A DNA stretch of 13,313 nt from a virus. Lineage: Duplodnaviria; Heunggongvirae; Uroviricota; Caudoviricetes. This document shows positions 1-13,313 of the stretch, piece after piece (the stretch's first letter is position 1; each line of letters begins with the position of its first letter). Under the pieces are notes generated by a model. It saw nothing but the letters and a program-made list of their open reading frames with translations. It was not told where the DNA came from and did no database searches. The DNA is taken from IMG/VR virus record IMGVR_UViG_2703718794_000005; one strand, written 5' to 3'. A program made the position numbers and the translations under genes.

Positions 1-160
1 GTTAAGCATCCACAGGCTGGTATCTGCAACCGATTATAACGGATGCTTAACGTAATGCGTGAAGTATGGACATATTTTATCAATTAGTGTTTTTTGCCGT
101 TTCATAATGTTTCAGGTTGTGCGTTATGTTTTTGATTATAAACAGATTTGTGATTTTTCT

Positions 161-230: not shown

Positions 231-1478
231 ATGACCGGATTCAAAATTATGAGCAGAGCACTTAACAAACTGAGCGATACACAGCTGAGGAAAATCAACG
301 GCACACCCGCCCAAAAAACAGCCTTTCTTAATGACGGTGGAAACCTGAGCGTCAGGCATTCAACCAGTGGCCTTTTAACCTGGTATTTCACTTACAGGGC
401 CGGAACGGGAAGGGGGGCACCACCGGAACGCATTAAGCTGGGAAATTATCCTGATCTGAGCCTGAAATCAGCCAGGGAAAAAGCCGCCCAGTGTCGCGCA
501 TGGCTGGCAGAGGGGAAAAATCCACGTCATGAAATGAATTACACCGTACAGGAAGCGTTAAAGCCGGTAACGGTTGGCGATGCGCTCACCTACTGGCTTG
601 AGTCGTACGCAAAGGAAAACCGTGTGGATTATGACCCACTGAAAAAGCGGCTAAATAATCACGTAATACAGCACATTGGCCCTATGCCGCTGGATAAATG
701 CGAGCTACGGCACTGGCTGGCCTGTTTTGATCGGGTGGCAAAGAAAGCCCCTGTTTCCGCCGGGTTCCTGCTACAGACATGCAAGCAGGCGCTTAAGTTC
801 TGCAGGAAGCGGCGCTATGCAATCAGCAACGTTCTTGATGATATGAGTGTGGCGGACGTTGGGAAAAAACCGGATATAAGTGAGCGTGTCTTAAGTAACA
901 AAGAACTTGGCGAATTATTGCAGGCACTGGACAAAAAAATATTTTCCCCTTACTACGTCGCACTAATCCGCCTCCTGATTGTTTTCGGATGCCGGACAGT
1001 AGAACTGAGGTTATCGGAGATCGGCGAGTGGGATTTTACCGAAATGCTCTGGACCGTTCCGAAGGAGCACAGCAAAACGAAGGTAGCCATATTCCGGCCC
1101 ATACCGGAAGCGATACTGCCGTTCGTCACGCAGCTGGTGGAGCAGAACAGGCACACGGGCTTATTGCTGGGGGAAGTGAAACAGGAAACCAGCGTATCGC
1201 AGTACGGCAGATTGGTGCACAGGAGGCTTAAACACCCTCACTGGTCACTGCATGACATCCGGCGCACCTTTACAACCATGCTGAACGATTTAGGCGTTGA
1301 TCCTCACGTCGTGGAGCAGCTTACAGGCCACCAGATGCCAGGAATGCAACGCGTGTACAACCATTCCCGCTATATTGATGCGAAACGCAATGCGCTTGAT
1401 ATGTGGGTGGAGCGGTTGGAGATACTGGCGGGAACACATGAAAACGTAACCACGCTACCAGTAACCAGAATAAAATAA
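228..1478 (+). CDS. int: Tyrosine recombinase/integrase, P4 family (N-terminal arm-binding domain type)
   Basis: 416-aa ORF beginning at GTG 228; N-terminus (LSDTQLRK..FLNDGGNLSVR..WYFTYR) resembles P4-type integrase arm-binding domain; sits next to attL. True start may be ATG 231 or ATG 249 (MSRALNKLSD...); no clear SD for any of them. Confidence 0.9.
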   Translation: MMTGFKIMSRALNKLSDTQLRKINGTPAQKTAFLNDGGNLSVRHSTSGLLTWYFTYRAGTGRGAPPERIKLGNYPDLSLKSAREKAAQCRAWLAEGKNPRHEMNYTVQEALKPVTVGDALTYWLESYAKENRVDYDPLKKRLNNHVIQHIGPMPLDKCELRHWLACFDRVAKKAPVSAGFLLQTCKQALKFCRKRRYAISNVLDDMSVADVGKKPDISERVLSNKELGELLQALDKKIFSPYYVALIRLLIVFGCRTVELRLSEIGEWDFTEMLWTVPKEHSKTKVAIFRPIPEAILPFVTQLVEQNRHTGLLLGEVKQETSVSQYGRLVHRRLKHPHWSLHDIRRTFTTMLNDLGVDPHVVEQLTGHQMPGMQRVYNHSRYIDAKRNALDMWVERLEILAGTHENVTTLPVTRIK

Positions 1479-1852: not shown

Positions 1853-2041
1853 GTGTTAAGCACTGATCGGTTTATACGTGAAAAAGAATGCGAAAAGCTA
1901 ACAGGCCTTAGCCGCTCATGCCGCTACCGCCTGGAAAAGGCCGGACAATTCCCATCACGTCGTAAACTTGGTGGGCGTTCTGTTGGCTGGTCTTTATCTG
2001 AGGTTTTGGCCTGGAAGGATAGCTGCAAGGCAGTTCACTAA
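1853..2041 (+). CDS. alpA: AlpA/Vis-family small HTH regulator (prophage regulatory protein / excision-directionality candidate)
   Basis: 62-aa ORF with GTG start 9 nt after aaaggggg SD; motif RKLGGRSVGWSLSEVLAW typical of AlpA-type MerR-like HTH; positioned directly downstream of int as in P4-like elements. Confidence 0.8.
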   Translation: MLSTDRFIREKECEKLTGLSRSCRYRLEKAGQFPSRRKLGGRSVGWSLSEVLAWKDSCKAVH

Positions 2042-2945: not shown

Positions 2946-3173
2946 TCATCCTGGCGGTCGGTTTTTGCCGGATTTAAGCCGCCGTGGGTATTTATCGACA
3001 AAATCTTCAAGGGCAAATTTTTCTGGTGGCACTAAGCGCGGCGCTGGTGGTGGTATTTTTGTTCTGGTTAGTTCTTCCTCAAGTCTGGCGCAGGCTTCTG
3101 ACTGCCTTTGCCGGATGATTTCATCATCTTGCGTTTGCGTGTCTTGTATTGGTGATAGTGTGTTGTTGGTCAT
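2946..3173 (-). CDS. Hypothetical small protein (75 aa), paralog of 2285-2488
   Basis: ORF start MTNN.. mirrors MTNK.. of the paralog; both preceded by the R1 element; shared C-terminal motif; protein-like composition. Confidence 0.55.
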   Translation of the reverse strand: MTNNTLSPIQDTQTQDDEIIRQRQSEACARLEEELTRTKIPPPAPRLVPPEKFALEDFVDKYPRRLKSGKNRPPG

Positions 3174-3181
3174 GATACTGC

Positions 3182-3225
3182 CCTGTAAAGCAATGCGCCG
3201 TAGTACCTCACACCACGGCGCTGAT
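3182..3225 (-). promoter_or_regulatory. Conserved 44-nt intercistronic hairpin element R1b
   Basis: cctgtaaagcaatgcgccgtagtacctcacaccacggcgctgat; on the minus-strand RNA forms a ~9-bp stem GCGCCGUGG/CUACGGCGC with GAGG in the loop; sits between stop of 3231-3419 and start of 2946-3173. Confidence 0.5.
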
Positions 3226-3230
3226 AGTGA

Positions 3231-3419
3231 TTATTCTGATTCTTTGGCCTTGCGACGCTGGCGGTATTCAACTTCCCGCTTTAATGCAGCTGTAACAAAC
3301 TGCCCTGTACTTTCGCCGGGCATTTTTACCGCCTCAACATTGTTCATAACTTCATGTGGAACCCTTGCCGCAACTGTTTGTGATTTTGCGTTTACTGCTT
3401 TTGTCGCCATGTTGAGCAC
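3231..3419 (-). CDS. Small DNA-binding regulator candidate (62 aa; possible ribbon-helix-helix type repressor)
   Basis: GTG start 4 nt after gagggg SD (alternative ATG 9 nt downstream); segment QTVAARVPHEVMNNVEAVK..GQFVTAALKREVE fits a beta-strand/helix/helix pattern; gene diverges from an operator array. Confidence 0.55.
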   Translation of the reverse strand: MLNMATKAVNAKSQTVAARVPHEVMNNVEAVKMPGESTGQFVTAALKREVEYRQRRKAKESE

Positions 3420-4689: not shown

Positions 4690-4989
4690 ATGAAACTTAA
4701 ATATTCTGGCTTAACTGCCAGTGGCAACACTCACCCTAAATTTACGCGCGGTGATATTTACCGCGACCAGTACGGCGGCACGGTAATGATTAAGGGCGTG
4801 GCGGGACGGTGCGTAACTTACCGCCGTGAAGGTTACGAATATGATTGCGTGATGCCTGTTTATCAGTTCCGGCGTGATTTTTCTCTGGTACAGACCGCGC
4901 CGCATAACGTGCCCACCAGCAACGCCAGGGCACGGGCAAACATCCAGAAGCTGAAAACCATGATTAACGGATTCAGGGGTAAAAAATGA
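4690..4989 (+). CDS. Hypothetical protein (99 aa), translationally coupled to the replication ATPase
   Basis: Stop overlaps start of next gene (ATGA at 4986-4989); protein-like composition. Confidence 0.6.
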   Translation: MKLKYSGLTASGNTHPKFTRGDIYRDQYGGTVMIKGVAGRCVTYRREGYEYDCVMPVYQFRRDFSLVQTAPHNVPTSNARARANIQKLKTMINGFRGKK

Positions 4990-6395
4990 AACTGGCACTG
5001 AACGTAAAACGATTACCGAAAGATAAATACACCGATGCGATTATTTTTGCGGGTATTGATGCTCACTCATTCGCAGAGCATTACATCATTGCACAGGCCA
5101 AAAAAGCAGGCGATCCAGTCCCTCCCGTTTATCTGGGGCGTTATCAGTTAAGCGAACTGGATAACCTCCAGATTGTTGATGATGGGCGATACAGGGCGAC
5201 GGTGATACGCGCCGGAAATATTGAAGAGCCGCAGCTGTTAACCATCGCCACGAAACTGGCGATCGCCGGAGTCCAGGAGGCGCGGCTACTTTCTGAAAAT
5301 TTCGAATTGCTGGAGGAATGGAGCGACCAGCTTCCACGGCTTAGGGAGGCATGGGAACGCGGGGAAAGCCTGGTCATGAAAAAAATTCCCCAGCGAAAAA
5401 CCACGCTACCGATGAGCGTTGGATCTACCGGATACGACACACAGCTTGATTACGTGGTAAAGGGGATTATTCCGGCATCGTCGCTTTGCAGCATATACGG
5501 GGCGAGCGGTTCCTATAAATCATTCCTTGCCGGATCGTGGGCGTGTCACGTTTCCACGGGCCGCCAGTGGGGAGGCCGCAGGGTGGCGCATGGCGCTGTT
5601 CTCTATGTGGTTGGTGAAGGCGGTATCGGCGTTCCGCGTCGTGTAAAAGCCTGGGAGGTTGTGCACGGTGAGCAGGTGAAAAATCTGTATCTGGTAAACC
5701 GTCCCATCTTTCCGGCGGTCCCGCTTGATGTTGATGAAATGGTTATCGCTGCCAGTCAGGTGGAGAGGGAAACGGGTAAACCTGTACGCATGATTATTCT
5801 GGATACGCTGGCGCGTTGCTTTGGTGGGAATGATGAAAATGATTCCCGTGATATGGGGGCGTTTATCCGTGGTTGTGACGAACTGAAACGGCGCACAGGG
5901 GCCACGGTGCTGGTGGTTCACCATTCCGGCAAGGATGAGACGAAAGGCGCGCGCGGTTCCAGTGCATTTCGTGCTTCGCTGGATGCTGAATACCGGATAC
6001 GCAGAGAGGACGCAGGCAGCGAAGCGCTGGTTATCTCATGCACCAAAATGAAGGACGCGGAGGAACTCAAAGAAGCCGCATATGACTTACGCGTGGTGGA
6101 GCTTTTTACCGACGCTGACGGGGAGTTAATCACGTCGCTGGTGGTGGTGGATAAGCCGCGCCCTCCCGTTGAACTGGAGCGCATCGAGGAGGCAGGGAAC
6201 AAGACGGAGAATCACGCCGCGCTATGGCAGTGCATCAGAACACGAACAGCACACGGGGAGGCGTGCACTATCGCCCTTCTCCGCGACGATATGAAAAAGC
6301 TGGGGTATGAGATGAAGCACTTCCGGCGCTGGCTGTACAAGCTGGAAAATGATGGCGTAATCGTTATTGATGGTGATGACGTGCGCCCGCTGTAA
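4986..6395 (+). CDS. Replication initiator / helicase-type RecA-fold ATPase (RepA/AAA_25-like)
   Basis: 469 aa; Walker A-like GASGSYKS, Walker B-like MIILDTLARC.GGNDEND, VLVVHHSGKD motif typical of RepA-like/DnaB-family ATPases; followed immediately by an iteron array. No primase (TOPRIM/zinc) motif noticed. Confidence 0.85.
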   Translation: MKLALNVKRLPKDKYTDAIIFAGIDAHSFAEHYIIAQAKKAGDPVPPVYLGRYQLSELDNLQIVDDGRYRATVIRAGNIEEPQLLTIATKLAIAGVQEARLLSENFELLEEWSDQLPRLREAWERGESLVMKKIPQRKTTLPMSVGSTGYDTQLDYVVKGIIPASSLCSIYGASGSYKSFLAGSWACHVSTGRQWGGRRVAHGAVLYVVGEGGIGVPRRVKAWEVVHGEQVKNLYLVNRPIFPAVPLDVDEMVIAASQVERETGKPVRMIILDTLARCFGGNDENDSRDMGAFIRGCDELKRRTGATVLVVHHSGKDETKGARGSSAFRASLDAEYRIRREDAGSEALVISCTKMKDAEELKEAAYDLRVVELFTDADGELITSLVVVDKPRPPVELERIEEAGNKTENHAALWQCIRTRTAHGEACTIALLRDDMKKLGYEMKHFRRWLYKLENDGVIVIDGDDVRPL

Positions 6396-6599
6396 AAAGT
6401 GGGGAGTAAAAGTGGGGAGAGCGGGGAATTTAACAAAATTGAAACATAATTACCCACTTTCCCACCTGTATATACCCAAAAAAGTGGGGAGTAAAAAACA
6501 TATTGAAAAACATAACGTTAGAATCACAAAAAAAAGAGGTGTGGAGACGGTGGGTAATTTCAAAAAGTGGGGAGCAAAAGTGGGGAGTAGTGGGGAATG
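6396..6599. repeat. Iteron-type replication origin: AGTGGGGAG x >=6 direct copies plus one inverted partial copy, AT-rich spacers
   Basis: Copies at 6398-6406, 6411-6419, 6420-6428 (degenerate), 6483-6491, 6566-6574, 6579-6587, 6589-6597; inverted cccacttt at 6453-6460; A/T-rich stretches between clusters; directly downstream of rep gene stop (6393-6395). Confidence 0.7.
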
Positions 6600-6848
6600 A
6601 ACAGAAAAACCAGAGATAAGACAGCGCCAAAATATAAAGCGTTAGACATGACAGAGCACGCTTTAAAGGTGGCAATCAGAACGATAGACCGCCACGCGGG
6701 GGAAGGATACGCGAAAGAACATCCCGACCTGATAAGCGCATTCATGACCACAGCAGCGGCAAACTTTGCCACGCTGACAGAACGTGAGATTGCCGAAGCG
6801 GAACAGGTAACAACCATCAACGTTAAAACCGGAGAGGTGGAATCATGA
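6597..6848 (+). CDS. Hypothetical protein (83 aa)
   Basis: ATG 6597 uses last iteron (GGGGA) as SD; stop overlaps SSB start (ATGA); charged helical composition. Confidence 0.55.
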   Translation: MNRKTRDKTAPKYKALDMTEHALKVAIRTIDRHAGEGYAKEHPDLISAFMTTAAANFATLTEREIAEAEQVTTINVKTGEVES

Positions 6849-7267
6849 CAGCACAGATAGCCGCTTACGGGCGGCTGGTGAACGACCCGCAGGTAAAACA
6901 GACCAGCAAGGGCACACCGATGACGCTGGTTCGTATGGCGGTATCGCTGCCATGCAGCCAGGCACAGGACGGACAGGCGACGTTATGGCTGTCCGTCATC
7001 GCATTTGGCAAGCAGGCCGACTTCCTGGCTAAACATCAAAAAGGCGACGTTGCCAGCGTATCCGGCACGATGCAGGTAAGCCAGTGGACAGGCCAGAACG
7101 GCGAAACGCGGCAGGGCTGGCAGGTTATCGCAGACAGCGTAATCAGTGCGAGAACGGCGCGACCGGGCGGCAAAAAAGGCCAGCAGGGGCAGGCTACTGA
7201 CGCACTGAACAGGGCAAAACAACAGGCGGGTAACGATGATCCGTACGGGGATAACATACCGTTTTAA
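6845..7267 (+). CDS. ssb: Single-stranded DNA-binding protein (SSB-like, OB fold with acidic DIPF-type tail)
   Basis: 140 aa; N-terminal OB-fold-like region (AYGRLVNDPQVKQTSKGTPMTLVRMAV..), Gly/Gln-rich linker, C-terminal DDPYGDNIPF resembling the SSB C-terminal DDDIPF tail. Confidence 0.8.
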   Translation: MTAQIAAYGRLVNDPQVKQTSKGTPMTLVRMAVSLPCSQAQDGQATLWLSVIAFGKQADFLAKHQKGDVASVSGTMQVSQWTGQNGETRQGWQVIADSVISARTARPGGKKGQQGQATDALNRAKQQAGNDDPYGDNIPF

Positions 7268-7283
7268 GCAACGAGTGACAGAA

Positions 7284-7305
7284 GCCGGAGCAATCCGGCT
7301 TTTTT
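7284..7305 (+). terminator. Intrinsic terminator (gccgga-gcaa-tccggc + T6)
   Basis: 6-bp GC stem, 4-nt loop, 6 T; 17 nt after SSB stop. Nearly identical hairpin recurs at 9725-9747. Confidence 0.7.
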
Positions 7306-7354
7306 ACGGGTCCTCCTGGCGGGGTGGGCCTGAACACGGGGCGGAGGGGCGCGG
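7306..7354 (+). other. Degenerate cos-like element (cosQ-like ACGGGTCCTCCTGG; cosN analogue GGGCGGAGGGGC at 7339-7350)
   Basis: Aligns with cos1 (9748-9794): terminator hairpin + ACGGGTCCT..GG + ACGGGGCGG; 12-mer differs from GGGCGGCGACCT at 4 positions. Confidence 0.4.
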
Positions 7355-7523: not shown

Positions 7524-7600
7524 CATATGAGGTTTTTTTGGTGCACTGACACACATGATCGGGATAATCATTTCATAATTTGCAACACAACTCAACATCA

Positions 7601-7661
7601 TTGCACAAAATGCAATCATGATTATAATCATAACTGGATGAACATCCAGTTATGATTTTTT
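7601..7661 (+). promoter_or_regulatory. Candidate promoter of the head operon (TTGCAC 7601-7606, 16 bp, TATAAT 7623-7628) embedded in nested palindromes (7618-7631 and 7628-7655) followed by T6
   Basis: Palindrome atgattataatcat covers the -10; perfect 13-bp-arm palindrome tcataactggatg-aa-catccagttatga spans predicted +1; SD agagga 10 nt before ATG 7685. Confidence 0.45.
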
Positions 7662-7684: not shown

Positions 7685-7891
7685 ATGGCAGAAGAGAAAA
7701 AAGGCGGGGTGACCGTGTACATAAGCCCCGACATCGTGGAGGCGCTCAAGGAACGCCACCAGCAGAACGTAAAAGCAGGCATCGCGGCAGGACTTGATCC
7801 GCTGGCGATGGTTGAGCCGTCAACAGGCTGGCAGGTACGCGCCTATTTACGCGCGGCGCTGGGCATGAATCAGACGCATGGAGGTGAATAA
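7685..7891 (+). CDS. Hypothetical protein (68 aa), translationally coupled to major capsid gene
   Basis: SD agagga; stop TAA overlaps ATG of next gene (TAATG, 7889-7893). Confidence 0.55.
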   Translation: MAEEKKGGVTVYISPDIVEALKERHQQNVKAGIAAGLDPLAMVEPSTGWQVRAYLRAALGMNQTHGGE

Positions 7892-8946
7892 TGGCAGGCA
7901 AAGCAACGGCACTTAACACTAACCAGCTTTTCGCGTACCTGAATCGCGGGGATATTGCGGAATTTAAATTCAGTCCGCTGTTTACCACGCTGTTTTTCCC
8001 GAACGTGGCGACATTCAACACCCAAAACATCATGCTGGACACCCTGGACATTGAAGAGGTTACGATGTCGGCGTTTTGTTCGCCTATGGTGGGTAGTCAG
8101 GTCCAGCGCGATAAAGGGTACGAAACCAGCACGATTAAACCTGGATACATGAAGCCGAAGCACGAAATCGATCCAACGAAAACCATCATGCGCATGGCCG
8201 GAGAAGATCCGGCACAGCTTAACGACCCTACCTATCGCCGTATGCGCCTGATTACTGGCAATATGCGCCGCCAGGTAAACGCCATAAAAGCGCGCGTGGA
8301 ATGGCTGGCGGTAAATGCGGTAACGACCGGAAAAAACATCATTGAGGGCGAAGGCATAGAGCGCTATGAAATCGACTGGAAGATACCGGAAAAAAACATC
8401 ATAGAGCAGGCCAAAGGCCGTAAATGGTCAGAGCAGGACAAAGAAACTCACGATCCAATCTATGATATTGAGCTTTATGCGGATCAGGGCAATTGCCCCG
8501 CAAACGTCATGATTATGGGCGCTGAGGTATGGCGCACGTTACGCAGCTTTAAAAAATTCCGCGAACTGTACGATCTTTCCCGTGGTTCAGAATCCGCCGC
8601 AGAACTGGCCTGCAAAAACCTGGGCGAAGTGGTGAGCTTTAAAGGCTATCTGGGCGATATTGCCCTTATCGTCTATTCCGGCAAATACACTGACAGCGAC
8701 GGCACCGAAAAATATTTCCTTGAGCCTGATTTGCTGGTCCTGGGCAACACCAACAATAAAGGGCTGGTGGCCTATGGTGCGATTATGGAACAGGAAGCGG
8801 TAAGAACGGGCGCAACGCAAAACATGTACTACCCGAAAAACTGGATTGAGGACGGCGATCCGGCGATTGAGTACGTGCAGACACACAGCGCACCGCAGCC
8901 GGTACCGGCAGATATTCGCAAATTTGTTACCGTCAAAATTGGTTAA
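7891..8946 (+). CDS. Major capsid protein, lambda gpE family
   Basis: 351 aa; blocks FKFSPLF..LFF, KPGYMKPKHE, DPTYRRMRLI, HDPIYDIELYA, RSFKKF, RGSESAAE, LGEVVSFKGYLGDIALIVYSGKY, FLEPDLLVLGNT, YPKNWIEDGDPA, SAP..AD..KFVTV align with lambda E protein as I recall it. Confidence 0.9.
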   Translation: MAGKATALNTNQLFAYLNRGDIAEFKFSPLFTTLFFPNVATFNTQNIMLDTLDIEEVTMSAFCSPMVGSQVQRDKGYETSTIKPGYMKPKHEIDPTKTIMRMAGEDPAQLNDPTYRRMRLITGNMRRQVNAIKARVEWLAVNAVTTGKNIIEGEGIERYEIDWKIPEKNIIEQAKGRKWSEQDKETHDPIYDIELYADQGNCPANVMIMGAEVWRTLRSFKKFRELYDLSRGSESAAELACKNLGEVVSFKGYLGDIALIVYSGKYTDSDGTEKYFLEPDLLVLGNTNNKGLVAYGAIMEQEAVRTGATQNMYYPKNWIEDGDPAIEYVQTHSAPQPVPADIRKFVTVKIG

Positions 8947-8957
8947 CGGGGGATTCT

Positions 8958-9293
8958 ATGGACACTCCATACATTGAGTTATTCGCAGGCAGTCAGCAGG
9001 TCGCCACGACGCTGGTACATTTTGCCGCTGATGCTGGCGTTATTCAGGAATTTACCCCGCTGATGCTGGCGGACAATGGCGAGTTTAAGCCGTGGGATGG
9101 TCAGGAATCTGGCAAGGCTGTTTATCTGACTTCGTACCCCGTGGACACGTCGACGCAGAAATCAGCACAGTGTTACAAGACGGGGATATTTAATATCGCT
9201 GCCGTAAACTGGCCTGAGAGCGCCGACACTGACGCGAAAAAATGCGCTGCCTTTGCGGGGTCTGGCGTATCCGTTCAGCCGCTGGCCCGATAA
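8958..9293 (+). CDS. Head decoration protein, lambda gpD-like
   Basis: 111 aa; TPLMLAD..WDG..YKTGIF..WPESADTDAKKCAAFAGSGVS matches remembered lambda D ([36 protein letters not shown]). Gene order E then D is reversed relative to lambda. Confidence 0.8.
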   Translation: MDTPYIELFAGSQQVATTLVHFAADAGVIQEFTPLMLADNGEFKPWDGQESGKAVYLTSYPVDTSTQKSAQCYKTGIFNIAAVNWPESADTDAKKCAAFAGSGVSVQPLAR

Positions 9294-9305
9294 GCAGGGG
9301 GAACG

Positions 9306-9719
9306 ATGGCAACGAATGAAAGCATCATGACGCTACCGCTGGCGAGTAAATTTAAAGCCGAAGCGCGGGCAATGGCTGACAGAGGGTTATCAACCTACGA
9401 GGCCATATATCAACTTAACAAACTGGAAGAGCAGGACAAGCCGCGCGCTGATGCGATTATGGCGCTTGATGAATCTGGCGACTATCAGCCGCTGTTACGT
9501 GCAATGGCAAACGTGCCTTGTATCGATGTTGGTACGGCTAAAAGCATCCTTAGCATGACCATAGAGCAGGAACGTCCGAAGGTTGCGCCGGAGCTTACCG
9601 CAGCCTTTGAAAACTTTATGGACATGCACAGCCCGCAAGCCGTATCAGCTGGCATGGCATACGATGGCAGAAACCCGGGCGATGACGGCGACATCGATCG
9701 CATACTGAAAACCATCTGA
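9306..9719 (+). CDS. Hypothetical protein (137 aa) within head module
   Basis: ORF with SD gggggaacg; acidic C-terminus; no recognisable homolog from memory. Confidence 0.6.
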   Translation: MATNESIMTLPLASKFKAEARAMADRGLSTYEAIYQLNKLEEQDKPRADAIMALDESGDYQPLLRAMANVPCIDVGTAKSILSMTIEQERPKVAPELTAAFENFMDMHSPQAVSAGMAYDGRNPGDDGDIDRILKTI

Positions 9720-9724
9720 GACAG

Positions 9725-9747
9725 GCCGGAGAAATCCGGCTTTTTTT
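9725..9747 (+). terminator. Intrinsic terminator (gccgga-gaaa-tccggc + T7)
   Basis: 6-bp GC stem, GAAA tetraloop, 7 T; 6 nt after stop of 9306-9719. Confidence 0.75.
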
Positions 9748-9830
9748 ACGGGTCCTTTCCGGCATATGGACCCGTTACGGGGCGGCGACCTCGCAGTTTT
9801 TCGCTATTTATGAGCCTTTTTCGGGTGCTG
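9748..9830 (+). other. cos site 1, lambda-type: cosQ-like ACGGGTCCTTTCCGG (9748-9762), cosN GGGCGGCGACCT (9780-9791), partial cosB-like (TTTTCGCTATTTATGA)
   Basis: Near-identical to the remembered lambda cos junction ACGGGTCCTTTCCGGTGATCCGACAGGTTACG|GGGCGGCGACCT|CGCGGGTTTTCGCTATTTATGAAAATTTTCCGG; precedes the Nu1-like gene as in lambda. Confidence 0.8.
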
Positions 9831-9924
9831 GTGGTGGTTTTGTTGTTCGCTCTATCTCTATGAATAAAAAGGGAAAGATAAAAACAATACACCAACCTGA
9901 AACATTACTTAAGTGGGGATATTG

Positions 9925-10467
9925 ATGAAATCGCACCTGATGAACAAAAAAAACATGGCGCAAAGCTGCCGTGTAAGTGCGACAGCGTTCGACAAGTGGC
10001 GAGTGACTCCCGTTGAACGTAAAGGACGCGAGGCTTTTTACGATGTTGCCAGCGTGATAGACAATCGGGTAAGCAATGCAATTAACCAGGTTACAAACGA
10101 CAAAGGCGAGATTGATGATGATGAACTCTTACGAGTCAGGATCAGATTACTGACCGCCCAGGCGGAGGCGCAGGAACTTAAAAACGAGCGCGATCGCGGT
10201 GACGTAATTGATACAGAGTTTTGCATGTACGCGCTTTCAAAACTGGCGAGCCAGATTTCTTCAATCATGGACAGCCTACCGCTTACGATGCAAAGGAGCT
10301 TCCCACAGATTACCCCCGCCATGCTGGATGGGCTTAAAAGGGAAGTGGTTAAAGCCTGTAATGCCAGTGCCAGAGTTGCCGACAACCTTCCGCAGATACT
10401 GGCTGATTACTTGAAAGAAACTACCGGAAACGTACCGGAAAAGTTGCTACAGAAGAAACGTGAGTAA
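9925..10467 (+). CDS. Small terminase subunit, lambda Nu1-like (TerS; could act as a packaging-redirecting TerS homolog)
   Basis: Central block LTAQAEAQELKNERDRGDVIDTEFCMYALSKLASQISSIMDSLPLTMQRSFPQ..LKREVVKACN aligns with lambda Nu1 (LTRAQADAQELKNARDSAEVVETAFCTFVLSRIAGEIASILDGLPLSVQRRFPE..LKRDIIKAMN). ATG 9925 has SD gtgggga; ORF track starts at GTG 9913; ATG 9940 also possible. Confidence 0.85.
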   Translation: MKSHLMNKKNMAQSCRVSATAFDKWRVTPVERKGREAFYDVASVIDNRVSNAINQVTNDKGEIDDDELLRVRIRLLTAQAEAQELKNERDRGDVIDTEFCMYALSKLASQISSIMDSLPLTMQRSFPQITPAMLDGLKREVVKACNASARVADNLPQILADYLKETTGNVPEKLLQKKRE

Positions 10468-10495
10468 CCGCAGCACAATTATTGAACAAAAATGA

Positions 10496-10557
10496 GAAAG
10501 GATCTGATAATGGCATTTTCTGGCTAAAATGCCTCGTGTCAGATCCTTTCTTTTTTT
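10496..10557 (+). terminator. Strong intrinsic terminator after terS (12-bp outer stem gaaaggatctga/tcagatcctttc enclosing an 8-bp inner hairpin, then T7)
   Basis: Read directly; on the minus strand the same inverted repeat corresponds in position to the lambda cosB-region inverted repeat (GAAAGGAAACGACAG..CTGTCGTTTCCTTTC). Confidence 0.7.
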
Positions 10558-10700
10558 AATGTTTTCATTGTTAAACAGTCTGTTACAGAGAAGAAGAACG
10601 GATCTGACTTTTGCCGGAAAATTTTCATAAACAGATAAAAACTGCGAGGTCGCCGCCCCGTAACGGGCCATAATTCCAGGAAGGACCCGACGACACCAGA
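10558..10700 (-). other. cos site 2, lambda-type, inverted relative to cos1: cosN GGGCGGCGACCT on minus strand (10647-10658), cosQ-like GGGTCCTTCCTGG, extended cosB-like region
   Basis: Reverse complement reads ..GGGTCCTTCCTGGAATTATGGCCCGTTACGGGGCGGCGACCTCGCAGTTTTTATCTGTTTATGAAAATTTTCCGG..GTTCTTCTTC..AAAGAAAGGA.., matching remembered lambda left end; 31-bp stretch 10637-10667 is the exact reverse complement of 9771-9801. Confidence 0.75.
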
Positions 10701-10722: not shown

Positions 10723-11004
10723 ATGACAGAAGCCGAACTACTGCGATTAATCCGTCGCGTTGCCGGAATCAGCCAGCAGGCTGACGAACAGGCCACGCAG
10801 CCGGACAGCGTGACCGCCGAAAATTATGCGCGTGTGGTTGCTGAGGTGATGCGCCGTGATGGTATTGAGCTTAACGGCGTGGATATGCGCAACATACGAA
10901 CCAGAGTCCTTGAGTTGCTGGCATACCGTCGCCGCGTGGAGATGTATCGGGAGAAGGAGAAAATCACGTATCACTGGAAGAAGCCGGAGCGGTTACGGCG
11001 GTAA
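10723..11004 (+). CDS. Hypothetical protein (93 aa)
   Basis: ATG after SD gatgggggc; Arg-rich basic C-terminus; no homolog recognised. Confidence 0.55.
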   Translation: MTEAELLRLIRRVAGISQQADEQATQPDSVTAENYARVVAEVMRRDGIELNGVDMRNIRTRVLELLAYRRRVEMYREKEKITYHWKKPERLRR

Positions 11005-11018
11005 CTTGTTGATTAAAA

Positions 11019-11093
11019 GGCGGCTCAATTCTGAGCTGGGTAGCTGACGGCGGTAACTGTTTGATATTCCCGATAACGCAAAATTGCGCTGGC
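11019..11093 (+). repeat. ~75-bp direct repeat, copy 1 (contains near-palindrome ctcaattctgag and palindrome gcgcaaaattgcgc)
   Basis: Closely matches 11206-11276 by eye; partial third copy at 10995-11015. Confidence 0.5.
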
Positions 11094-11205
11094 TACATCC
11101 CTCACATCTGAGGACTGTTAACCAGCAGGCCGGAATATATTCACAAACTACGAAATTTTCGTAGTTTAATTACTCGCCAGTTTATCGTTAACTAGTTGAT
11201 ATTTT

Positions 11206-11276
11206 CGGAAACCTCAATTTGAGGAAGTCGGCGCGGTAACTGTTTTATATTCCCGATAGCGCAAAAATGCGCGGTC
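11206..11276 (+). repeat. ~75-bp direct repeat, copy 2
   Basis: cggaaacctcaatttgaggaagtcggcgcggtaactgttttatattcccgatagcgcaaaaatgcgcggtc aligned to copy 1 by eye. Confidence 0.5.
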
Positions 11277-11413: not shown

Positions 11414-11704
11414 AGCGAAAAATTCTGATTAAGGTCACTGGCTGAATGGTCATAATGACCACGCAGACCATCAAGGCAACCATAGCGATCATCGTTACGG
11501 TTGGAGCTTTTCCGCCATTGGTGGAAAAGGTGCACATCTGGATCATCATTACGGTGATCAAGGGTATGTAAAACCCACCAGCCTGATTAAATGTTAACCG
11601 GAAAAAAATCCGGTAGCCCCGTTATGGGGATCCCCATATCGACATTAACGCCCCTCATGAATTGGTGCGCTTCCCCCTGGAAAGATTACCCGCCTGTATA
11701 TTTC

Positions 11705-11775
11705 TTGTGTCTATTTGTTCCACGTTGTTTCATACAGTGCACCGAACGGTGTAGTTAATGGTGTAGTCAATTTGC
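11705..11775. repeat. attR: right copy of island-bounding direct repeat (perfect core 11747-11767)
   Basis: cggtgtagttaatggtgtagt identical to 202-222; upstream arm ttgttccacgttgtttcatacagtgcaccgaa resembles the attL upstream arm. Confidence 0.75.
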
Positions 11776-11852
11776 GATTTTTGGCACTTTTTTAATGATA
11801 ATTGTTTAATTAAATCAATGACTTGGCCTGGTGTAGTGATAAAAGGACATAT

Positions 11853-13313
11853 TTATTCATCTTTCGGCGCAGAATGCTGGCGACCAAAAATCACCTCCAT
11901 CCGCGCACCGCCCAGCATGCTCTCTCCGGCGACGATTTTACCCTCATATTGCTCGGTGATTTCGCGGGCTACCGCCAGCCCTACACCTTGCCCAGGGCGT
12001 AAAGTATCAACCCGTTGACCACGGTCGAAAATGACCTCTCGCTTGCTTAATGGAATACCGGGGCCATCATCCTCGACCACAATATAGAGATGCTCGTCGG
12101 TTTGCCTTGCAGAAATTTCGACAAACTCGAGGCAATATTTACAGGCATTATCCAGCACGTTGCCCATCACCTCGACAAAATCGTTCTGCTCACCGACAAA
12201 GCTGATCTCTGGCGAAATATCGAGAGAGATATTGACCCCTTTGCGTTGATACACTTTGTTCAGCGCTGAGGTGAGATTGTCCAGCAGTGGGGCGACCGGA
12301 TGCAGCTCGCGGCTGAGCAATGTCCCGCCGCGCATACTGGCACGATGCAGGTAGTAGCCAATTTGCTGTGAAATGCGGCTGATTTGCTCCAGCATTACCG
12401 GCTCAGCATCACTGACGCTCATCTTTTCACTACGCAGAGAACGCAGCGTACTTTGCAGCACCGCCAGTGGCGTTTTCAGACTATGGGTCAGGTCGGTGAG
12501 CGTCGTACGGTATTTGTCGTAACGTTCGCGTTCACTTTTTAACAATCGGTTCAGGTTTCGTACCAGACTGGTCAGTTCTCGCGTTGTGGCTGGATTGAGC
12601 AATTCGCGGTTATGTTCTTCCAGTTCGCGGACTTCTTTTGCCAGGGCTTCAATGGGGCGTAAACTCCACCAGGCGGCGACCCACAGCAGCGGGATCACTA
12701 ACAGCAGATTGGCTGAGAGCACATAGATAAACCAGCTCCAGACCATATAGGAACTTTTTAGCTCCACCGGAATGGTATCCACCACCACAATGGTTAATTT
12801 TGGCATCCGCGATGTTGCCGGGTAGACGTTTACTGCCACCGAGTGGGTCATCTCCGCGTCGTCATCATCTTCCCGCACTTCCTGCAACTGTTGCTGTATC
12901 GAATGATCTCCACTCAGCAAGAGGCTGGTATCGTTAACATCCGCTTCAATTTCATGAAAACCATTCGATTTCAGCCAGTCAGGCTGGATCATCTTCATCA
13001 GCCAGGGCACGTCACGTTGCGCCCATAAAAGCTGCCCGTTCTCATCATAAATTAGCGTCATGGTGGGGCTTTGCTTGTCGATATTTTCGGGTAACTCGAC
13101 ATGCAACTTATTGTTTTCCCACTTCGCAAGGGTATAGAACAGATTGCTCTCGCCACGTAACAGCCGAAACGTAGTTTTATCGAAACTGACGCTATAACCG
13201 ATCAGCGCGACCATTCCGTAGGCAAGCGAAAGCACCAGTACTACCGCAGCCGTTGCCAACAGAAAACGTACCCGCAGTGAGAGCGGGAAAAAAAGACGCA
13301 GTAATTTTTTCAT
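11853..13313 (-). CDS. phoQ: Sensor histidine kinase PhoQ (two-component system PhoP/PhoQ), chromosomal
   Basis: 486-aa ORF; full-length match to remembered E. coli PhoQ ([52 protein letters not shown]...); start codon at window end, so phoP presumably lies just beyond 13313. Confidence 0.97.

Follow-up and report, generated by a model that had tools for sequence, protein, structure and literature searches.

The stretch of viral DNA analyzed here (13,313 nucleotides of the IMG/VR record IMGVR_UViG_2703718794_000005, hereafter the window) contains an Escherichia coli phage satellite, a phage-inducible chromosomal island (PICI) of the EcCICFT073 family, and so a canonical element of a kind already known. 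Comparison with related islands identifies its lambda-type capsid and decoration genes as an old, satellite-specific, co-evolving pair, adds to them a scaffold-like third gene that had been overlooked, and ties the island's small terminase (TerS) gene to one of its two cos sites. In gene content the island is a textbook PICI, and nothing in the finding as first stated is new; what is new is the constraint on the capsid and decoration genes, the satellite-only clade in which they fall, the linkage of TerS and cosB at the first cos site (cos1), the mini-scaffold gene, and, going by the marker names, the disrupted state of this block in published knockouts. The satellite-specific capsid/decoration block is carried by roughly one complete E. 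coli genome in nine (598/5,426); it is more tightly conserved than the replication and integration genes of the island, and the literature assigns no function to it.

The island measures 11,777 bp between its attachment (att) site cores at 68-77 and 11845-11854, close to the ~11.6 kb of a preliminary description of this DNA, and is integrated between roxA (ycfD) and phoQ, with the end of roxA on the left flank of the window and phoQ (11853-13313, minus strand) on the right. As in Gram-negative PICIs of the EcCICFT073 type, which are small (about 10-15 kb), it has a terminal integrase gene and att repeats, a co-oriented AlpA gene downstream of int, a replication module with iterons just 3', and a packaging module with TerS, two cos sites, and a capsid gene. 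In the late module, the gene for a 68-aa protein is followed by those for the capsid (gpE type), decoration (gpD type), and mini-scaffold (Nu3 type) proteins, then by a cos site and the cosB belonging to it, the gene for a full-length Nu1-type TerS, an optional inverted cos site, and the gene for a 93-aa protein. When all open reading frames (ORFs) were scanned against Pfam and PHROGs, none gave a portal, large terminase (TerL), protease, tail, or lysis family match, and the longest remaining island ORFs are those of the 469-aa helicase and the integrase. Gene content and family membership thus support the reading, already put forward in the preliminary description, of a helper-dependent satellite whose lambda-type head module is incomplete, lacking portal, protease, and TerL. 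The same description had placed the island midway between classic and capsid-forming PICIs, but it is not an intermediate form, because the published PICI definition used by SatelliteFinder already counts capsid morphogenesis and small terminase among its five core components; capsid genes are present in 21 of 29 reference Gram-negative PICIs. Helper-dependent induction, packaging, and high-frequency transfer have been demonstrated by experiment for the ortholog EcCICFT073 only.

At least 80% of the window is present in 357 of 5,426 complete E. coli genomes, and one locus, in strain 2013C-3181 (locus L001), is 99.9% identical to it. Satellite P4 resembles the island in size (~11.6-11.8 kb), in its P4-type integrase family, and in cos packaging by the helper terminase, but differs in having no capsid or terminase gene of its own, and the Pfam and PHROG scans of the window returned no homologues of P4 Sid, Psu, Delta, or alpha-primase.

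Capsid, decoration, and scaffold-like genes

The capsid block comprises four adjoining genes:

7685-7891, plus strand: 68-aa conserved protein (phrog_3255); its stop codon overlaps the start of the capsid gene
7891-8946, plus strand: major capsid protein of lambda gpE type, satellite-specific lineage, 351 aa (Pfam, lambda gpE, structure model)
8958-9293, plus strand: head decoration protein of the lambda gpD/phage 21 SHP type (Pfam HDPD, 1.8e-17; 38% identical to lambda gpD)
9306-9719, plus strand: mini-scaffold, 137 aa, homologue of the C-terminal ~90-135 residues of lambda Nu3/gpC; equivalent to c1501 of EcCICFT073 (137 aa)

The capsid protein matches Pfam Phage_cap_E (PF03864) at 1.2e-50 over profile positions 14-328 of 329 and is 43% identical to lambda gpE (3e-93), while its AlphaFold2 (AF2) model aligns with lambda gpE structures at template modeling (TM) scores of 0.83-0.88. 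It is also 96% identical to EcCICFT073 c1499, the crystal structure of which has been available since 2008 (PDB 3BQW) and is the top structural match of the model; a literature search found no paper giving PICI capsid genes a function or treating 3BQW functionally, and no assembly data for 3BQW. By sequence and by full-length fold the protein is a member of the lambda gpE family, and it is predicted to assemble into shells. The decoration protein likewise matches solved SHP/gpD structures in addition to its family. Profile, BLASTP, and structural comparisons are therefore in agreement with the gpE-like and gpD-like calls made earlier, and the order E then D, which had been noted as reversed relative to lambda, is real and common to 10/10 satellites examined.

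The preliminary description held that no scaffold gene was present, yet the 137-aa ORF at 9306-9719 lies inside the region it described and is homologous to the C-terminal domain of Nu3. This ORF matches phrog_1999 at 7.8e-65 and, weakly, phrog_53 (1.3e-8), at the C-terminal end of a head maturation protease family; lambda Nu3 in turn matches phrog_1999 at 2.7e-26 over Nu3 residues 117-200 and lambda gpC matches it at 1.5e-25, and a Nu3-like protein recovered by exhaustive search bridges the phrog_1999 and Nu3/gpC families. In the alignment, two copies of an 'IMxLxEAxG...PGMT...A..LL' unit and an 'FExFM..HSP' tail are common to the 137-aa protein and the C-termini of gpC and Nu3. A satellite from Lelliottia has a full-length S49-type gpC in the same slot after its capsid and decoration genes, and the 137-aa protein aligns with residues 311-413 of that gpC. 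The gene in the window stands alone, with no protease domain and without the N-terminal ~115 residues of Nu3. Lambda Nu3 has about 200 aa and is nested in frame within the protease gene; the mini-scaffold keeps its C-terminal repeat motif and tail but not this layout. Judged by these homologies, the ORF, formerly 'hypothetical' or 'head-tail connector', is an overlooked scaffold-like third member of the capsid block. Neither NCBIfam nor Pfam backs the name 'phage head-tail connector protein' that RefSeq gives it in some genomes, and we prefer the Nu3/gpC homology to this name; lambda FI was also considered and shows no resemblance.

Pairwise comparison over seven or eight islands gave the following ratios of nonsynonymous to synonymous substitution rates (dN/dS):

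Capsid protein: 0.11
Decoration protein: 0.05-0.12 (close pairs)
TerS: 0.10-0.20
93-aa gene: 0.17
Integrase: 0.19
Helicase: 0.20
68-aa gene: 0.26
Mini-scaffold: 0.31

The capsid and decoration genes are thus the most constrained of the island, below both helicase and integrase. No internal stop codons were found, and the capsid protein has 351 aa in every island compared. Any part of the four-gene block occurs in 598 of 5,426 complete E. coli genomes, and in 594 of these 598 the block is complete.

A query of species-representative genomes with the capsid protein gave no match, and the contigs of graded homologues were looked up instead. Every capsid protein examined at 51-69% identity, from Salmonella, Edwardsiella, Lelliottia, Serratia, and E. 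coli, proved to be encoded in a satellite that has the E-then-D order and lacks portal and large terminase genes. The ten satellite capsid proteins compared, which come from five genera, group in a clade whose members are 50-97% identical to one another but 39-46% identical to phage gpE, with 46% as the best phage match to the window's protein among 50,697 genomes, and the decoration proteins are split between satellites and phages in the same way. PICIs embedded in their helpers (11capE and relatives) have the same organization, including a gpE-family capsid gene, and differ in sitting inside helper late genes; three such loci (L008, L012, and L018) carry the same capsid clade, and the capsid protein of one of them (L008) is only 46% identical to that of its own helper. 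Because identity is high between satellites and low between satellites and phages, we regard the capsid and decoration genes as an old, satellite-specific pair that has co-evolved, and as neither recent captures nor remnants.

The block is bordered by further conserved features:

7570-7657, plus strand: conserved putative regulatory block upstream of the capsid genes, kept in eight islands including divergent ones (alignment)
9723-9742, plus strand: terminator-like hairpin with T-run after the capsid block; related copy at 7276-7305 (repeat D8)

The upstream block contains a perfect palindrome (ATTGCA-N5-TGCAAT, 7600-7616), a TATAAT at 7623-7628 and, overlapping the latter, a 14-bp perfect inverted repeat with a T-run (7626-7657); no sigma-70 consensus match was scored in it, and it may act as a promoter under operator control or as a leader terminator. 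Satellites of five genera have an ortholog of the 68-aa gene immediately before the capsid gene. The AF2 model of the 68-aa protein (moderate confidence; strands and two helices) gave no significant Foldseek match, and a ribbon-helix-helix assignment suggested by its sequence pattern was dropped, given the moderate model confidence and the lack of a match; gpW has the same length yet bears no resemblance to it. A near-identical hairpin terminator with TTTTTTACGGGTCCT is found at both borders of the capsid block (7276-7314 and 9717-9756), of which the second copy continues into sequence on the cosQ side of cos1, and in other islands perC and further genes are inserted at the first. These border repeats may be recombination joints for module exchange.

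The small terminase and its cos site

Downstream of the capsid block, the packaging region contains the following features:

9780-9791, plus strand: cosN of cos1, an exact match to the lambda 12-mer GGGCGGCGACCT
9792-9924, plus strand: cosB of cos1, TerS-linked type, with a G/T tract (9824-9847) and a distal element (9885-9900)
9925-10467, plus strand: full-length Nu1-type small terminase TerS, 180 aa (Pfam, PHROG, lambda Nu1)
10480-10658, minus strand: cos2, an inverted second cos site, with cosN at 10647-10658 (exact lambda 12-mer) and a cosB of lambda architecture
10723-11004, plus strand: 93-aa conserved protein (phrog_1561), present in all E. coli islands compared

TerS matches Pfam Phage_Nu1 (PF07471) at 2.3e-23 and positions 8-195 of 199 of the TerS PHROG profile, and is 36% identical to lambda Nu1 across residues 6-166, the C-terminal part included, with an alignment to Nu1 residues 3-180, which upholds the earlier Nu1-like call over essentially the full length. 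End to end it is 33-36% identical to lambdoid small terminases, and the closest phage TerS, that of N15, is 44% identical. EcCICFT073, the prototype from E. coli CFT073, shares with the window the integration site, the att core, the order of 68-aa, capsid (96%), decoration, 137-aa (c1501), and 93-aa genes, and two inverted lambda-type cos sites at the same positions, but has a 144-aa RppA where the window has the 180-aa TerS, another cosB at cos1, and a perC gene. Rpp proteins have 144-153 aa, are related in sequence to RppA/B/C, and resemble TerS only in a winged helix-turn-helix (wHTH) domain. RppA covers the TerS profile only through this domain (residues 7-47) and has no BLASTP similarity to the window's TerS, and this lack, together with the full-length profile match of the 180-aa protein, rules out an Rpp at 9925-10467. 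Since TerS is found in 717 complete E. coli genomes and rppA-type genes in 97, the characterized Rpp mechanism is the minority form, and the TerS-type slot, about seven times commoner in E. coli, is without a known helper. The literature states a TerS for the PICIs EcCIIHE3034 and EcCI18098, in some cases at another integration site. O157:H7 and UM146-type islands have the window's TerS (93-95% nucleotide identity) and capsid block in common; islands of the O157/O55 lineage at ycfD-phoQ, such as EcCIRM12579, are likewise catalogued and presumably also encode TerS.

The two cosN 12-mers flank terS, and the alignment extends the likeness to the cos sites of lambda and EcCICFT073 well beyond the 12-mer. 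In cos2, three R-like elements CAGATCC(G/T)TTCT at 10595-10606, 10540-10551, and 10495-10506 follow the R3/R2/R1 arrangement. The first three islands compared had both cosB types together with TerS and were ambiguous, and four more settled the matter: the TerS-type cosB lies between cosN and terS in 7/7 TerS-type islands, with other sequence there in Rpp-type islands, whereas cos2 is missing from three of these seven and of another type in a fourth. From this comparison we conclude that cos1 is the TerS-linked site and cos2 an optional second site of phage type. Because the specific cosB lies between cosN and terS in all seven, the Nu1-like protein very probably directs packaging to the island's own cos, as had been suggested; the support for that suggestion is comparative. 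No close match to the cos2-type cosB was found in 50,697 phage genomes, and no candidate helper can therefore be named from it.

Several further observations concern this region. The G/T-rich tract of the cos1 cosB (9824-9848) has an 88% identical copy at 3040-3064 inside a minus-strand early ORF, maybe by chance. The 93-aa gene is always downstream of the TerS/Rpp slot, whichever gene fills it. One locus at the same chromosomal site (L004, 11274-11483) has a third slot variant, a 69-aa ORF without a family match, next to a phage-type cosB at cos1. In four others (L007 and L016-L018) this TerS and cos1 cassette accompanies a second lineage of satellite capsid genes, with a capsid protein of 346 aa, a decoration protein of 113 aa, and an AlpA-like helix-turn-helix gene in place of the mini-scaffold; packaging and capsid submodules thus recombine.

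Role of the capsid block

From the homologies, gene content, purifying selection, satellite-specific lineage, and cosB-terS linkage, which are directly observed, we infer every biochemical step of a scheme that we favor with moderate confidence, in which a canonical PICI uses its own TerS and cos1 with a helper TerL, and the capsid, decoration, and mini-scaffold genes are a functional, helper-dependent shell kit. A lambdoid helper would induce the island, which, by analogy with its family, would excise and replicate as concatemers. TerS would bind the cos1 cosB through its N-terminal DNA-binding domain and recruit the helper large terminase through its Nu1-like C-terminal domain, as homology and the cosB-terS linkage suggest (in lambda, the Nu1 C-terminus binds the N-terminus of gpA), so that the helper small terminase would not be needed, unlike in Rpp-type islands. 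Cutting at the lambda-type cosN would lead to packaging into lambda-size heads, most likely of four tandem copies. The three head proteins would form a co-evolved kit working only with the helper's portal, protease, large terminase, and tail, and would most likely supply shells or shell subunits for satellite packaging; in lambda, E, B, and C are all interaction partners of Nu3.

Lambda heads accept DNA of roughly 75-105% of the genome length, and gpD is needed only when the head is nearly full; the retention of a matched decoration protein therefore fits shells filled to capacity. One copy of the island equals 24% of the lambda genome, three copies 73%, and four copies 97% (47.1 kb). The preliminary description had argued that an element of this size would leave a lambdoid head grossly underfilled, an argument that overlooks concatemer packaging. 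For E. coli PICIs of the EcCICFT073 family, which have 10.5-11.9 kb, four copies amount to 42-48 kb; the literature suggests three copies per head, but four fit better.

A number of points weigh against this scheme. The presence of the satellite capsid protein in particles is as yet hypothetical, and EcCICFT073 islands deleted for c1499 or c1500 were unaltered in transfer and in lambda interference, so that any contribution of the shell kit was undetectable in those assays. Some satellites of the capsid clade have no mini-scaffold. TerS can be lost, since it carries a 1-bp frameshift in the 99.9% identical strain 2013C-3181 (L001, 15925-16466), and a separate 1-bp frameshift is found in UM146 (L019, 3001-3542), though the copy in the window is intact. 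The TerS-type PICIs that were tested (IHE3034 and 18098) transferred poorly with resident prophages and have no known helper. The published negative evidence is nevertheless weaker than it looks, because both marked EcCICFT073 derivatives, c1501::tetA and c1499::cat, had, going by the marker names, a disrupted capsid-decoration-scaffold block (the supplement gives c1501 as a 137-aa protein), and the background of the deletions may already have been null.

The preliminary description proposed that the island builds smaller capsids from its own capsid protein and borrows the helper's portal, protease, TerL, and tail. On this model, the capsid, decoration, and mini-scaffold proteins would redirect assembly to small capsids, of about T=3 or T=4, that hold a single 11.8-kb copy. 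Satellite scaffold-like proteins can remodel helper capsids, as CpmB of SaPI1 does, and the mini-scaffold, which retains only the C-terminal part of Nu3, could act in the same way, as an alternative internal scaffold sharing the capsid-binding end of the helper scaffold. SaPIbov5 makes small capsids with its capsid homologue Ccm, and the Pasteurella PICI PmCI172, which encodes a capsid protein homologue, makes them as well; the strong purifying selection on the block and a conserved decoration protein, suggestive of a lattice filled to high pressure, would also suit such capsids, and the negative data are open to the doubt just raised over the marked derivatives. Yet CpmB and Ccm have no sequence relationship to the proteins of the window and demonstrably yield small capsids, whereas a corresponding effect of the EcCICFT073-family proteins is hypothetical. 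EcCICFT073 DNA packaged by lambda was all phage-sized, induction of CFT073 gave no PICI-monomer band, and the c1499::cat island transferred at up to 10^6 per ml without a capsid gene. E. coli PICIs, moreover, group in size around a quarter of a lambdoid genome, as suits concatemer packaging. With phage-sized DNA and null c1499 and c1500 deletions in the ortholog, the small-capsid proposal is not supported and strikes us as unlikely, though it is unproven rather than refuted.

We give still less weight to a role in interference, in which the capsid-like proteins would co-assemble with or titrate helper head proteins and add nothing to satellite particles. The SatelliteFinder paper attributes to the PICI capsid component a presumed role in altering hijacked capsids and so blocking encapsidation of phage DNA, and TerS-type islands are without Rpp, the known interference factor of the family, so that another gene may serve; but deletion of c1499 or c1500 brought no return of lambda plaques on EcCICFT073 cells (with Rpp present and c1501 disrupted), and a pure inhibitor needs neither a matched decoration protein nor a whole HK97 fold kept at a dN/dS of 0.1. 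That the capsid genes are a backup copy, replacing helper late genes interrupted by helper-embedded relatives and passive in chromosomal islands, seems very improbable: related islands do integrate in prophage E, B, and C genes, and four loci (L008, L012, L013, and L018) are embedded in prophages, but the L008 satellite interrupts a portal gene rather than the capsid gene and has the divergent capsid protein noted above, and most copies are chromosomal yet equally constrained. We can give hardly any credence to the head genes being functionless, decaying leftovers of a phage ancestor, for although deletion of neither c1499 nor c1500 revealed a phenotype, dN/dS values of 0.05-0.12, invariant length, the lack of stop codons, the occurrence in five genera, and a block that is complete in 594/598 E. 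coli genomes all speak for function.

Beyond the shell kit that we favor for lambda-size heads, we tentatively raise a bolder proposal, rather unlikely in our view, that the capsid, decoration, and mini-scaffold genes are a self-contained kit of an old satellite-only lineage that builds satellite-specific, possibly small, capsids on a stolen helper portal. Capsid-forming PICIs (cf-PICIs) such as EcCIEDL933 share with the window the int-alpA-rep backbone and a capsid protein of their own, but have a complete HK97-type set (TerS, TerL, HNH, portal, protease, and connectors) and form their own small capsids, whereas no TerL, portal, protease, or connectors were found in the window and its capsid protein is of lambda gpE type. 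If true, building satellite-specific capsids on a helper portal would add a third strategy, lying between the mere theft of capsids and the formation of complete ones, and would so far have escaped notice because the kit was disrupted in each marked EcCICFT073 derivative tested (c1501::tetA or c1499::cat).

Integration, replication, and other island features

The ends and the left half of the island contain the following features:

68-77, plus strand: attL core GGACATATTT, an exact match to the published ycfD-phoQ att core of EcCICFT073/EcCIRM12579
249-1478, plus strand: tyrosine integrase, Arm-DNA-bind_3 and Phage_integrase (Pfam, PHROG; RefSeq annotation of the 99.9% identical locus)
1853-2041, plus strand: AlpA-family regulator/excisionase (Pfam Phage_AlpA, 5e-18; PHROG excisionase/regulator)
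4690-4989: DUF4222 gene (Pfam DUF4222, 2.1e-23), preceding the helicase gene
4986-6395, plus strand: RepA-family replicative helicase, 469 aa (Pfam AAA_25, 1.3e-43)
6394-6606, plus strand: putative replication origin with three AAAAAGTGGGGAG iterons at a spacing of 83-85 bp (repeat families D5/D7)
6845-7267, plus strand: single-strand DNA-binding protein, SSB (Pfam SSB, 5.1e-17)
11845-11854, plus strand: attR core GGACATATTT, overlapping the phoQ stop codon

A 75-nt imperfect direct repeat (153-227 and 11698-11772) was at first taken as att and was replaced by the published core. It lies just inside both island ends and holds tandem GGTGTAGTTAAT units; the literature lists its sequence as the att core of another PICI, EcCIDI14, and it probably represents integrase arm-binding sites. 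The iteron region is a probable replication origin, and published PICI origins likewise sit directly 3' of the replication gene. A family scan of the small early genes gave no head-related match. The right arm, which is poor in genes, has a 40-nt repeat (GCGGTAACTGTTTGATATTCCCGATAACGCAAAATTGCGC) in three copies at 11050-11272, and an Rfam search that included this region found no RNA family. In the early region, a 75-nt direct repeat (80%) at 2478-2552 and 3163-3237 marks a duplicated cassette of small minus-strand genes, made up of a YlcI/YnfO-like gene and a hypothetical gene.

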